The position numbers were made by a program, and so were the translations under genes. Source: Escherichia coli (GTDB lineage Bacteria; Pseudomonadota; Gammaproteobacteria; Enterobacterales; Enterobacteriaceae). From it: a stretch of 64,000 nucleotides of DNA. Positions 14,297 to 19,078 of the stretch are shown here, in pieces (the first letter of the stretch is position 1; every line of letters starts with the position of its first letter). The stretch lies in the NCBI RefSeq assembly GCF_003334335.1, contig NZ_QOWQ01000008.1, one strand, 5' to 3'. The notes below the pieces were generated by a model, which had not been told where the DNA came from, ran no database searches, and was given only the letters and a program-made list of their open reading frames with translations.

Positions 14297-14701
14297 TCAC
14301 GCGGCAACCACTTCATACGAGTGAGTAATATTCACCGCTTTTTCCAGCATCAACGCCACTGAACAATATTTCTCGGCAGAGAGATCAACCGCACGCGCAA
14401 CCGCTGCGTCTTTCAGGTCGCGACCGGTGACGATAAAATGCAGATTAATGTGCGTAAACAGGCGTGGTGCCTCTTCGCGGCGTTCAGAGGTCAATTTTAC
14501 TTCACAATCGACCACATCCTGACGCCCTTTTTGCAGGATCGAAACCACATCGATGGCACTGCAACCACCCGCCGCCATCAACACCATTTCCATCGGACTT
14601 GGTGCTTTATCGCCTGAGTTGCCGTCCATTAAAATCTGATGACCAGAGGCGGATTCGCCCAGAAAAGTTAACCCTTCGACCCACTTCACTCGCGCTTGCA
14701 T
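14297..14701 (-). CDS. yhfA: OsmC-family protein YhfA
   Basis: 134-aa ORF MQARVKWVEGLTFLGESASGHQILMDG; divergent from crp. Confidence 0.88.
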   Translation of the reverse strand: MQARVKWVEGLTFLGESASGHQILMDGNSGDKAPSPMEMVLMAAGGCSAIDVVSILQKGRQDVVDCEVKLTSERREEAPRLFTHINLHFIVTGRDLKDAAVARAVDLSAEKYCSVALMLEKAVNITHSYEVVAA

Positions 14702-15002
14702 TTTTGCTACTCCACTGCGTCAATTTTCCTGACAGAGTACGCGTACTAACCAAATCGCGCAACGGAAGGCGACCTGGGTCATGCTGAAGCGAGACACCAG
14801 GAGACACAAAGCGAAAGCTATGCTAAAACAGTCAGGATGCTACAGTAATACATTGATGTACTGCATGTATGCAAAGGACGTCACATTACCGTGCAGTACA
14901 GTTGATAGCCCCTTCCCAGGTAGCGGGAAGCATATTTCGGCAATCCAGAGACAGCGGCGTTATCTGGCTCTGGAGAAAGCTTATAACAGAGGATAACCGC
15001 GC

Positions 15003-15635
15003 ATGGTGCTTGGCAAACCGCAAACAGACCCGACTCTCGAATGGTTCTTGTCTCATTGCCACATTCATAAGTACCCATCCAAGAGCACGCTTATTCACCA
15101 GGGTGAAAAAGCGGAAACGCTGTACTACATCGTTAAAGGCTCTGTGGCAGTGCTGATCAAAGACGAAGAGGGTAAAGAAATGATCCTCTCCTATCTGAAT
15201 CAGGGTGATTTTATTGGCGAACTGGGCCTGTTTGAAGAGGGCCAGGAACGTAGCGCATGGGTACGTGCGAAAACCGCCTGTGAAGTGGCTGAAATTTCGT
15301 ACAAAAAATTTCGCCAATTGATTCAGGTAAACCCGGACATTCTGATGCGTTTGTCTGCACAGATGGCGCGTCGTCTGCAAGTCACTTCAGAGAAAGTGGG
15401 CAACCTGGCGTTCCTCGACGTGACGGGCCGCATTGCACAGACTCTGCTGAATCTGGCAAAACAACCAGACGCTATGACTCACCCGGACGGTATGCAAATC
15501 AAAATTACCCGTCAGGAAATTGGTCAGATTGTCGGCTGTTCTCGTGAAACCGTGGGACGCATTCTGAAGATGCTGGAAGATCAGAACCTGATCTCCGCAC
15601 ACGGTAAAACCATCGTCGTTTACGGCACTCGTTAA
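15003..15635 (+). CDS. crp: cAMP receptor protein
   Basis: 210-aa [53 protein letters not shown]...; [17 protein letters not shown]. Confidence 0.98.
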
Positions 15636-15645
15636 TCCCGTCGGA

Positions 15646-15680
15646 GTGGCGCGTTACCTGGTAGCGCGCCATTTTGTTTC
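15646..15680 (+). terminator. Putative crp terminator
   Basis: tggcgcg ... gcgcgcca stem followed by ttttgttt; lies between crp stop and yhfK start. Confidence 0.55.
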
Positions 15681-17776
15681 CCCCGATGTGGCGCAGACTG
15701 ATTTATCACCCCGATATCAACTATGCACTTCGACAAACGCTGGTGCTATGTTTGCCCGTGGCCGTTGGGTTAATGCTTGGCGAATTACGATTCGGTCTGC
15801 TCTTCTCCCTCGTTCCTGCCTGTTGCAATATTGCGGGCCTTGATACGCCTCATAAACGTTTTTTCAAACGCTTAATCATTGGTGCGTCGCTGTTTGCCAC
15901 CTGTAGCTTGCTGACACAGCTACTACTGGCAAAAGATGTTCCCCTGCCCTTTTTGCTGACCGGATTAACGCTGGTACTTGGCGTCACTGCTGAGCTGGGG
16001 CCATTGCACGCAAAATTGCTTCCTGCATCGCTGCTCGCCGCCATTTTTACCCTCAGTTTGGCGGGATACATGCCGGTCTGGGAACCGTTGCTCATCTATG
16101 CGTTGGGCACTCTCTGGTACGGATTGTTTAACTGGTTTTGGTTCTGGATCTGGCGCGAACAACCGCTGCGCGAGTCACTAAGTCTGCTGTACCGTGAACT
16201 GGCAGATTATTGTGAAGCCAAATACAGCCTGCTTACCCAGCACACCGACCCTGAAAAAGCGCTGCCGCCGCTGCTGGTGCGCCAGCAAAAAGCGGTCGAT
16301 CTAATTACCCAGTGCTATCAGCAAATGCATATGCTTTCCGCGCAAAATAATACTGACTACAAGCGGATGCTGCGTATTTTCCAGGAGGCGCTGGATTTAC
16401 AGGAACATATTTCGGTCAGTTTGCATCAGCCGGAAGAGGTGCAAAAGCTGGTCGAGCGTAGCCATGCGGAAGAAGTTATCCGCTGGAATGCGCAAACCGT
16501 CGCCGCTCGCCTGCGCGTGCTGGCTGATGACATTCTTTACCATCGCCTGCCAACGCGTTTTACGATGGAAAAGCAAATTGGCGCACTGGAAAAAATCGCC
16601 CGCCAGCATCCGGATAATCCGGTTGGGCAATTCTGCTACTGGCATTTCAGCCGCATCGCCCGCGTGCTGCGCACCCAAAAACCGCTCTATGCCCGTGACT
16701 TACTGGCCGATAAACAGCGGCGAATGCCATTACTTCCGGCGCTGAAAAGTTATCTGTCACTAAAGTCTCCGGCGCTACGCAATGCCGGACGACTCAGTGT
16801 GATGTTAAGCGTTGCCAGCCTGATGGGCACCGCGCTGCATCTGCCGAAGTCGTACTGGATCCTGATGACGGTATTGCTGGTGACACAAAATGGCTATGGC
16901 GCAACCCGTCTGAGGATTGTGAATCGCTCCGTGGGAACCGTGGTCGGGTTAATCATTGCGGGCGTGGCGCTGCACTTTAAAATTCCCGAAGGTTACACCC
17001 TGACGTTGATGCTGATTACCACCCTCGCCAGCTACCTGATATTGCGCAAAAACTACGGCTGGGCGACGGTCGGTTTTACTATTACCGCAGTGTATACCCT
17101 GCAACTATTGTGGTTGAACGGCGAGCAATACATCCTTCCGCGTCTTATCGATACCATTATTGGTTGTTTAATTGCTTTCGGCGGTACTGTCTGGCTGTGG
17201 CCGCAGTGGCAGAGCGGGTTATTGCGTAAAAACGCCCATGATGCTTTAGAAGCCTATCAGGAAGCGATTCGCTTGATTCTTAGCGAGGATCCGCAACCTA
17301 CGCCACTGGCCTGGCAGCGAATGCGGGTAAATCAGGCACATAACACTCTGTATAACTCATTGAATCAGGCGATGCAGGAACCGGCGTTTAACAGCCATTA
17401 TCTGGCAGATATGAAACTGTGGGTAACGCACAGCCAGTTTATTGTTGAGCATATTAATGCCATGACCACGCTGGCGCGGGAACACCGGGCATTGCCACCT
17501 GAACTGGCACAAGAGTATTTACAGTCTTGTGAAATCGCCATTCAGCGTTGTCAGCAGCGACTGGAGTATGACGAACCGGGTAGTTCTGGCGATGCCAATA
17601 TCATGGATGCGCCGGAGATGCAGCCGCACGAAGGCGCGGCAGGTACGCTGGAGCAGCATTTACAGCGGGTTATTGGTCATCTGAACACCATGCACACCAT
17701 TTCGTCGATGGCATGGCGTCAGCGACCGCATCACGGGATTTGGCTGAGTCGCAAGTTGCGGGATTCGAAGGCGTAA
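15674..17776 (+). CDS. yhfK: Large inner-membrane protein YhfK (unknown function)
   Basis: 700-aa ORF, hydrophobic N-terminal half and repeated hydrophobic blocks after residue ~380. Confidence 0.88.
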   Translation: MFPPMWRRLIYHPDINYALRQTLVLCLPVAVGLMLGELRFGLLFSLVPACCNIAGLDTPHKRFFKRLIIGASLFATCSLLTQLLLAKDVPLPFLLTGLTLVLGVTAELGPLHAKLLPASLLAAIFTLSLAGYMPVWEPLLIYALGTLWYGLFNWFWFWIWREQPLRESLSLLYRELADYCEAKYSLLTQHTDPEKALPPLLVRQQKAVDLITQCYQQMHMLSAQNNTDYKRMLRIFQEALDLQEHISVSLHQPEEVQKLVERSHAEEVIRWNAQTVAARLRVLADDILYHRLPTRFTMEKQIGALEKIARQHPDNPVGQFCYWHFSRIARVLRTQKPLYARDLLADKQRRMPLLPALKSYLSLKSPALRNAGRLSVMLSVASLMGTALHLPKSYWILMTVLLVTQNGYGATRLRIVNRSVGTVVGLIIAGVALHFKIPEGYTLTLMLITTLASYLILRKNYGWATVGFTITAVYTLQLLWLNGEQYILPRLIDTIIGCLIAFGGTVWLWPQWQSGLLRKNAHDALEAYQEAIRLILSEDPQPTPLAWQRMRVNQAHNTLYNSLNQAMQEPAFNSHYLADMKLWVTHSQFIVEHINAMTTLAREHRALPPELAQEYLQSCEIAIQRCQQRLEYDEPGSSGDANIMDAPEMQPHEGAAGTLEQHLQRVIGHLNTMHTISSMAWRQRPHHGIWLSRKLRDSKA

Positions 17777-17789
17777 TGCAGGCTAAACC

Positions 17790-17820
17790 ATCGGATAAGG
17801 CATTCACGCCGCATCCGACA
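17790..17820. repeat. REP (repetitive extragenic palindromic) element
   Basis: cggataaggcattcacgccgcatccg, canonical REP-like sequence between convergent yhfK and argD. Confidence 0.7.
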
Positions 17821-17842
17821 TCTTTTGCCTGATGCTTCGTAT

Positions 17843-19078
<1,236 letters not shown>

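Follow-up and report, generated by a model that had tools for sequence, protein, structure and literature searches.

yhfK, the gene behind the crp terminator of Escherichia coli, encodes a two-module FUSC-type membrane protein predicted to resemble plant ALMT channels

The yhfK gene lies directly downstream of crp in Escherichia coli. We analyzed it in a 64,000 nt stretch of E. coli DNA (the window; NCBI RefSeq assembly GCF_003334335.1, contig NZ_QOWQ01000008.1), in which the gene order is prkB, yhfA (minus strand), crp, yhfK, and then argD, pabA and fic (all minus strand). The placement of yhfK next to crp by an earlier sequence-only reading was confirmed by the RefSeq annotation (Table 1). 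Positions 15500-17900 were found at >=95% identity in 5426/5426 complete E. coli genomes, annotated as 'yhfK: YccS/YhfK family putative transporter'. Thus, yhfK is not a chance open reading frame (ORF): it belongs to the core genome and occurs in all complete E. coli genomes. Both the gene and its family name are already on record, as is the relationship between FUSC and ALMT proteins. Our additions are modest: a corrected start codon, the view of YhfK as an asymmetric dimer fused in one chain, for which we name candidate pore residues, and a terminator and a Shine-Dalgarno-less leader whose conservation goes along with that of yhfK across Enterobacterales.

The crp terminator, the leader and the start codon of yhfK

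A hairpin and a U-tract follow the crp stop codon. The stem is lengthened by A-U and G-U pairs to 15645/15673, and the structure folds with a dG of -30.1 kcal/mol (z -3.25). The stem sequence varies by genus among 77 distinct Enterobacteriaceae spacers, all of which retain a GC-rich hairpin followed by a T-tract. We aligned 43 crp-yhfK spacers (43 genera or species) and compared the pairing with 500 shuffles and with slid registers. Standard pairs occupied 96.9% of the cells, and compensatory double changes were found at 11 of the 13 pairs; the observed values were reached by none of the 500 shuffles, and the slid registers paired just 31-58% of the cells. A published Term-seq 3′ end at MG1655 position 3486794, which corresponds to 15677 in the window (MG1655 coordinate = window + 3471117, an offset checked against the crp start codon), falls inside the U-tract and has an intrinsic terminator score of 8.1 (Adams et al., eLife 2021, PMC7815308). 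The crp-yhfK spacer thus shows what is expected of an intrinsic terminator, namely a GC-rich hairpin, a U-tract, compensatory changes and an RNA 3′ end within the U-tract.

In most sequences the hairpin begins 5-8 nt past the crp stop codon; the yhfK ATG is located 5-16 nt past the last paired base. In 75 of the 77 distinct spacers, the distance from terminator to ATG is thus too small to accommodate a promoter. On average, pyrimidines make up 80% and G 13% of the last 18 nt upstream of the ATG (75 distinct spacers), and a Shine-Dalgarno-like tetramer (AGGA, GGAG, GAGG, AAGG or GGGG) was found at -17 to -4 in none of 81 loci. In Cedecea (locus L072, 3811-4000) and Buttiauxella (locus L079, 3803-4000), a highly structured additional segment of ~130 nt separates the crp terminator from the ATG, which extends their spacers to 187 and 195 nt, respectively, compared with 45-62 nt elsewhere. 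An Rfam scan of 14600-18000 and of these two long-spacer loci returned nothing at or near threshold.

The longest mechanical ORF on the plus strand, 15674-17776, starts with TTG and comprises 700 codons. The sequence-only reading had adopted this ORF and had placed its start 38 bp after crp; the ORF and the distance (38 nt past the stop codon) are both correct, but TTG is probably not the start. The RefSeq ATG at 15686 is located 14 nt beyond the hairpin stem and 50 nt beyond crp. Orthologues at 82%, 57% (Tatumella) and 40% (Plesiomonas) identity all start with MWRRLIYHP or its equivalent, and the NCBIfam profile match opens just after the ATG-15686 methionine. An in-frame start upstream of the ATG is absent in 26 of 81 related loci; elsewhere it lies 6 to 51 nt off and is usually a TTG within the terminator T-tract. 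In view of the RefSeq call, the shared N-termini and the loci devoid of an upstream start, we rejected TTG 15674 and regard ATG 15686 as probably the conserved start codon. The ORF had also been described as overlapping the terminator hairpin: the TTG lies outside the stem and within the U-tract that follows it. In the table of Adams et al., 2021 (PMC7815308), the crp terminator 3′ end counts as 'internal' to yhfK (distance 3 nt), because the older annotation used there starts at TTG.

In the window and in 80/80 related loci, yhfK is flanked by crp upstream and by a convergent argD. All 80 of the Enterobacteriaceae loci that we examined share the order crp, terminator, yhfK, as do Tatumella and Plesiomonas, whereas a 28% identical homologue in Vibrio sinus is located elsewhere and lacks this arrangement. 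Thus, the linkage of yhfK to crp is a feature of Enterobacterales. The two adjacent genes have evolved at unequal rates: CRP is 98.6-100% identical across Enterobacteriaceae, and YhfK falls to 77-88% in the same genomes (loci L002-L081).

Transcription of yhfK across the crp terminator

Published DirectRNA-seq counts for the 800 nt upstream and downstream of 15677 are 754/399 without bicyclomycin and 580/725 with the drug (Rho score 2.36; Adams et al., 2021, PMC7815308), which correspond to downstream/upstream ratios of 53% and 125%, respectively. In the same study, a region of Rho-dependent termination peaks at MG1655 position 3487001 (15884 in the window), with counts of 675/217 in untreated and 587/578 in treated cells (score 3.06, p = 5e-32), and a lacZ transcriptional fusion spanning crp through the end of yhfK was up 1.6-1.8-fold in the rhoR66S mutant (PMC7815308). 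The C-rich and G-poor composition of the 100 nt before 15884 suits Rho loading. Overall, transcripts extend beyond the crp terminator, and a large part of this RNA is then eliminated by Rho near the beginning of yhfK, as expected for a poorly translated ORF.

The sequence-only reading had raised the possibility that yhfK is co-expressed with crp by read-through. This idea is supported, short of proof, by the 75 of 77 spacers with no space for a promoter after the hairpin and by the RNA detected past 15677, where the published counts give the amount of RNA and not the origins of the transcripts; the Rho region at 15884 and the response of the lacZ fusion to rhoR66S back it further. As yhfK has kept both the terminator and the Shine-Dalgarno-less leader across Enterobacterales, read-through is the most economical account of yhfK expression. 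We favor it as the main route, and yhfK is probably transcribed solely in this way. Deletions, insertions and terminator edits in crp are thus likely to change the expression of yhfK, which is a practical caveat for studies of crp mutants.

Alternatively, yhfK might be transcribed from its own promoter within the 3′ part of crp, possibly in a CRP-dependent manner, and its position would then reflect compact gene packing. The 53% of signal downstream of the terminator even without Rho inhibition is high for a strong terminator, and the spacer of Plesiomonas is longer (102 nt), with ~50 nt between the terminator and the ATG. According to a 2007 paper, yhfK was verified as a CRP-regulated gene by Zheng et al. 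2004; regulation of this kind would be a natural result if yhfK shares the autoregulated promoter of crp. No sigma-70-like promoter was reported on the plus strand of 14700-18100 in a consensus scan, a negative to which we give little weight because the same crude scan missed the obvious crp terminator, along with the crp promoter. CRP-site-like matches within crp have 2-3 mismatches each and do not exceed the chance level (with <=3 mismatches allowed, the window contains 195 versus 216 expected). Moreover, a promoter inside crp would sit upstream of the hairpin, so that read-through would still be required. Hence, we regard a separate promoter as unlikely. The only CRP-box-like site that stands out near crp is TGCAAAGGACGTCACA at 14870-14885 in the crp leader, the best match with 2 mismatches, which is presumably the known autoregulatory CRP site.

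Two fused modules and a candidate pore

YhfK matches the NCBIfam YccS/YhfK family profile TIGR01667 almost end to end, with 926.5 bits against a cut-off of 467.8 and residues 16-679 aligned to profile positions 1-700 of 701. A profile search for fusaric-acid-resistance and aromatic-acid-exporter domains had been proposed as a check; besides TIGR01667, it returned Pfam FUSC-like (residues 67-334), FUSC_2 (PF13515; residues 381-502, E 8.2e-22) and weak matches to FUSC (PF04632, AaeB/FusC-type; residues 379-644, E 5e-6) and ArAE_1, which bears out the relationship that had been guessed. YhfK almost certainly belongs to the YccS/YhfK (FUSC-type) family. The equivalog profile of YccS itself (TIGR01666) was rejected at 165.1 bits against a cut-off of 470.75, and YhfK is a paralogue of YccS. 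The earlier statement that no function is assigned holds at the level of substrates, since none has been tested in the searchable literature, but a family-level assignment as a putative transporter exists. A tested function was likewise absent from the searchable literature for any member of this subfamily.

As our crude hydropathy scan under-called helices, we used the secondary structure of an AlphaFold2 model (pLDDT 89.2, pTM 0.88). In the model, residues 9-155 and 362-503 each form six membrane helices, and each of these blocks is followed by a helical domain (159-330 and 509-695, respectively); the pTM suggests that the predicted packing of the domains is confident. The two membrane blocks around a soluble region that had been noted earlier are both present. 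The second soluble domain, at the C-terminus, had been overlooked, so that the architecture is a repeat of six membrane helices followed by a cytosolic bundle of about six helices, which is the FUSC/ALMT module. In a profile-profile comparison of the two halves, built from 52 diverse homologues, residues 6-337 aligned with residues 359-690 at 94.4% probability (E 8.9e-8). YhfK has therefore arisen by internal duplication. The database also includes single-module proteins (320-445 aa) whose match is confined to the C-terminal half. Foldseek against AFDB50 found the whole two-module fold only in uncharacterised FUSC/YccS proteins, as Proteobacteria and Bacteroidota models with TM-scores of 0.8-0.9.

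Among solved structures, the relatives of YhfK are plant anion channels. The eight best Foldseek matches in PDB, and the sole ones at probability 1.00, are chains of ALMT1, ALMT9 and ALMT12. A sequence profile of the family, searched against all PDB chains, matched ALMT12 (E 6e-10) and ALMT9 (E 2.5e-9), and no bacterial relative was found among these chains. PF13515, whose match at residues 381-502 places YhfK in the FUSC/ALMT superfamily, represents the pore-forming core of transmembrane helices TM2-TM6 of ALMTs (PMC10490231). Pfam ALMT (PF11744) matched only marginally (E 0.0073, 15.7 bits, residues 393-522), and membership in the ALMT family proper was rejected; YhfK is related to it.

The gate of GmALMT12 is W90; a basic ring inside the membrane consists of K109, R113 and R158, and a further ring, made up of R187 and R198, is located where the pore opens (PMC10490231). 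HMMER alignments equate W90, K109, R113 and R198 of GmALMT12 with W391, R410, R414 and R486 of YhfK. Among 52 family members (17-82% identity), R414 and R486 are present in 52/52 and W391 in 51/52, and R or K occupies position 410 in 48/52. The C-terminal membrane module that holds these residues is the best conserved region of the family, with a mean identity of 36% compared with 20-27% elsewhere. ALMTs of plants are homodimeric channels in which two membrane domains enclose one pore (PMC10490231). YhfK is likely to be an ALMT-like pseudo-dimer.

Table 1. Features of the crp-yhfK locus (window coordinates)
Feature	Position	Strand	Remarks
crp coding sequence, 210 aa	15003..15635	+	upstream gene supplying the transcript; stop codon 15633-15635
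crp intrinsic terminator	15645..15679	+	stem 15647-15657 / 15661-15671, loop CUG, U-tract UUUUGUUU 15672-15679
Short pyrimidine-rich leader without Shine-Dalgarno sequence	15672..15685	+	between hairpin and yhfK ATG
TTG, start in the sequence-only reading and in older annotation	15674-15676	+	inside terminator U-tract; not the conserved start codon (probable)
yhfK coding sequence, 696 aa plus stop	15686..17776	+	RefSeq/PGAP call WP_001295162.1
N-terminal membrane module, residues 1-158	15686..16159	+	six helices; degenerate copy
C-rich, G-poor stretch early in yhfK	15780..15884	+	C/G up to 2.0; ends at published Rho-dependent termination position
First cytosolic helical domain, residues 159-345	16160..16720	+	conserved motif D237-x-x-E240-H241
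C-terminal membrane module, residues 362-508	16769..17209	+	Pfam FUSC_2 and ALMT pore domain match
Candidate pore-residue codons	W391 16856-16858; R410 16913-16915; R414 16925-16927; R486 17141-17143	+	C-terminal membrane module
Second cytosolic helical domain, residues 509-696	17210..17773	+	

The convergent spacer between yhfK and argD (17777-17842) contains a palindrome, CGGATAAGGCATTCACGCCGCATCCG, that resembles repetitive extragenic palindromic (REP) elements and lies within a stable fold; the Rfam family naRNA4, a REP-derived RNA, matched 17789-17849 below threshold (22.4 bits against 59.5). Transposon insertions in 'argD_yhfK' were the top match for reduced c-di-GMP in a 2026 FRET-To-Sort screen, but Sanger sequencing did not confirm them (PMC13031359). 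In E. coli TUM2805 (NZ_CP128950.1, 395078-398816), yhfK is split by an IS4-like ISVsa5 transposase insertion, and its loss is therefore not lethal. The name yhfK is shared with an unrelated Gram-positive NAD-binding or 'sugar epimerase' protein and is sometimes carried into Enterobacter annotations, so that text searches and automated annotations mix the two. Most literature matches to 'yhfK' concerned this NAD-binding/epimerase-like protein, and those to 'b3358', 'YccS' and 'AaeB' were almost only acronym noise.

A proposed carboxylate efflux channel and its relation to known systems

Taken together, we consider it reasonably probable that YhfK is a single-chain, pseudo-dimeric efflux channel for carboxylate anions that is expressed at a low level by read-through. 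YhfK would reside in the inner membrane as a member of the FUSC/ALMT superfamily, with its two homologous modules of six membrane helices and a cytosolic helical bundle fused in one chain. By analogy with the ALMT dimer, both membrane modules may pack into a single asymmetric pore, lined mainly by the invariant basic residues R410, R414 and R486 of the C-terminal module and gated by W391. Acting as a channel rather than a carrier, it would let small carboxylate anions leave the cytoplasm down their electrochemical gradient. Its expression would be low and would require RNA polymerase to read through the crp terminator; the read-through transcript would enter the Shine-Dalgarno-less leader, and Rho would cut most of it off before ~200 nt of yhfK have been transcribed.

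The likeliest substrates of such a channel would be C4-C5 dicarboxylates such as glutamate, 2-oxoglutarate and malate, although we put forward a dicarboxylate or glutamate only tentatively. In an Ajinomoto patent (Hara, Izui, Ito), amplification of yhfK is reported to raise L-glutamate export in Pantoea and E. coli; if correct, this would fit a C5 dicarboxylate substrate. The reported phenotypes of yhfK are weak and scattered. The YhfK protein is strongly reduced in uropathogenic E. coli grown in urine or inside bladder cells, transposon sequencing revealed a fitness defect of yhfK in Salmonella under moderate iron restriction, and overexpression of yhfK lowers the minimum inhibitory concentration (MIC) of trimethoprim two-fold.

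Several points weigh against the proposed channel and its expression by read-through. In the N-terminal module, hhalign places L39 opposite W391 and P134 opposite R486, and R58 and R62, which align with R410 and R414, are conserved among close orthologues only; therefore, the two halves are not equivalent. As this module lacks the Trp gate and the TM6 Arg and is poorly conserved, the pore may differ from that of ALMTs. The E value of Pfam ALMT itself is marginal (0.0073), a transport assay of YhfK was found nowhere in the searchable literature, and descriptions of the FUSC relatives AaeB and FusC present them not as channels but as pumps that export aromatic or fusaric acids. As for expression, the DirectRNA-seq counts cannot tell read-through from a promoter inside crp, the 1.6-1.8-fold effect of rhoR66S is small, and the promoter scan was crude, as its failure to report the crp promoter and terminator indicates.

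A rival proposal for the function of YhfK is a carrier of the AaeB/FusC type driven by the proton motive force. It would export carboxylic acids that are aromatic or otherwise hydrophobic, in contrast to an ALMT-like channel for small dicarboxylates. The Pfam FUSC match and the weak ArAE_1 match agree with this idea, as does the two-module architecture of ~700 aa, which is that of bacterial FUSC/PET proteins, and the two-fold shift in trimethoprim MIC is a small drug-related phenotype. However, the overexpressing cells were more sensitive to trimethoprim, not more resistant. AaeB works together with AaeA in the efflux of p-hydroxybenzoate, whereas yhfK has no adjacent gene for a membrane fusion protein, its neighbors being crp and argD in the window and in 80/80 related loci. 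Furthermore, the only relatives whose function and structure have been resolved conduct small organic anions as channels. An aromatic-acid pump is thus a doubtful alternative to the channel. That YhfK is mainly a membrane-anchored sensor or regulator acting through its two PhoU-like cytosolic helical bundles, with transport secondary or absent, is very improbable because the membrane pore module is the most strongly conserved part of the protein.

A more speculative extension of the channel model, which we consider improbable, is that the crp stop codon, hairpin, U-tract, leader and early Rho site constitute a tuned attenuator rather than a leaky terminator. The level of a glutamate/2-oxoglutarate efflux channel would then be coupled to both the transcription and the translation of crp, and a ribosome on the crp stop codon could cover the base of the hairpin and thereby favor read-through. 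Alpha-ketoacids reportedly control cAMP synthesis (Doucette 2011; You 2013), and for this reason a channel encoded behind crp would, if the attenuator exists, close a feedback loop between carbon/nitrogen status and cAMP-CRP signaling. The view of YhfK as a fused and asymmetric relative of ALMTs provides concrete experimental targets and overturns no existing knowledge.

In terms of known systems, YhfK is closest to its own YccS/YhfK family (TIGR01667; 'putative efflux transporter', PET/FUSC), which includes the E. coli paralogue YccS and whose profile it matches from end to end. With the AaeB/FusC-type proteins (PF04632; TC 2.A.85) it has in common the two-module architecture of ~650-700 aa and a Pfam FUSC match that is weak; unlike these systems, it has no adjacent membrane-fusion-protein gene and no evidence for aromatic-acid substrates. 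In its expression, yhfK resembles genes that undergo premature Rho termination after a poorly translated start, such as mdtJI (Adams et al., 2021): they likewise have a 3′ end at the start of the ORF, a Rho-dependent region inside it and increased reporter activity in a rho mutant. For yhfK, by contrast, the whole of the upstream gene crp, including the intrinsic terminator that follows it, takes the place of the 5′ 'leader'.

The plant ALMTs (AtALMT1, AtALMT9 and GmALMT12/QUAC1) are homodimeric anion channels, whereas YhfK has two non-identical modules in one chain, and nothing suggests that it is regulated by aluminium or γ-aminobutyric acid. Among bacterial proteins, the Mycobacterium tuberculosis Rv2571c (AKGC) is a single-module FUSC protein that was reported in a recent preprint to mediate efflux of 2-oxoglutarate and is predicted to form an ALMT-like homodimer; its TM6 arginine, R149, was essential in deep mutational scanning (same preprint). 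Compared by description, R149 of Rv2571c corresponds to R486 of YhfK, and both are bacterial FUSC-domain proteins with an ALMT-like predicted fold. Rv2571c consists of 355 aa, is a predicted homodimer and lacks the TM3 arginine, whereas YhfK would be a fused pseudo-dimer that carries both arginines in its C-terminal module.

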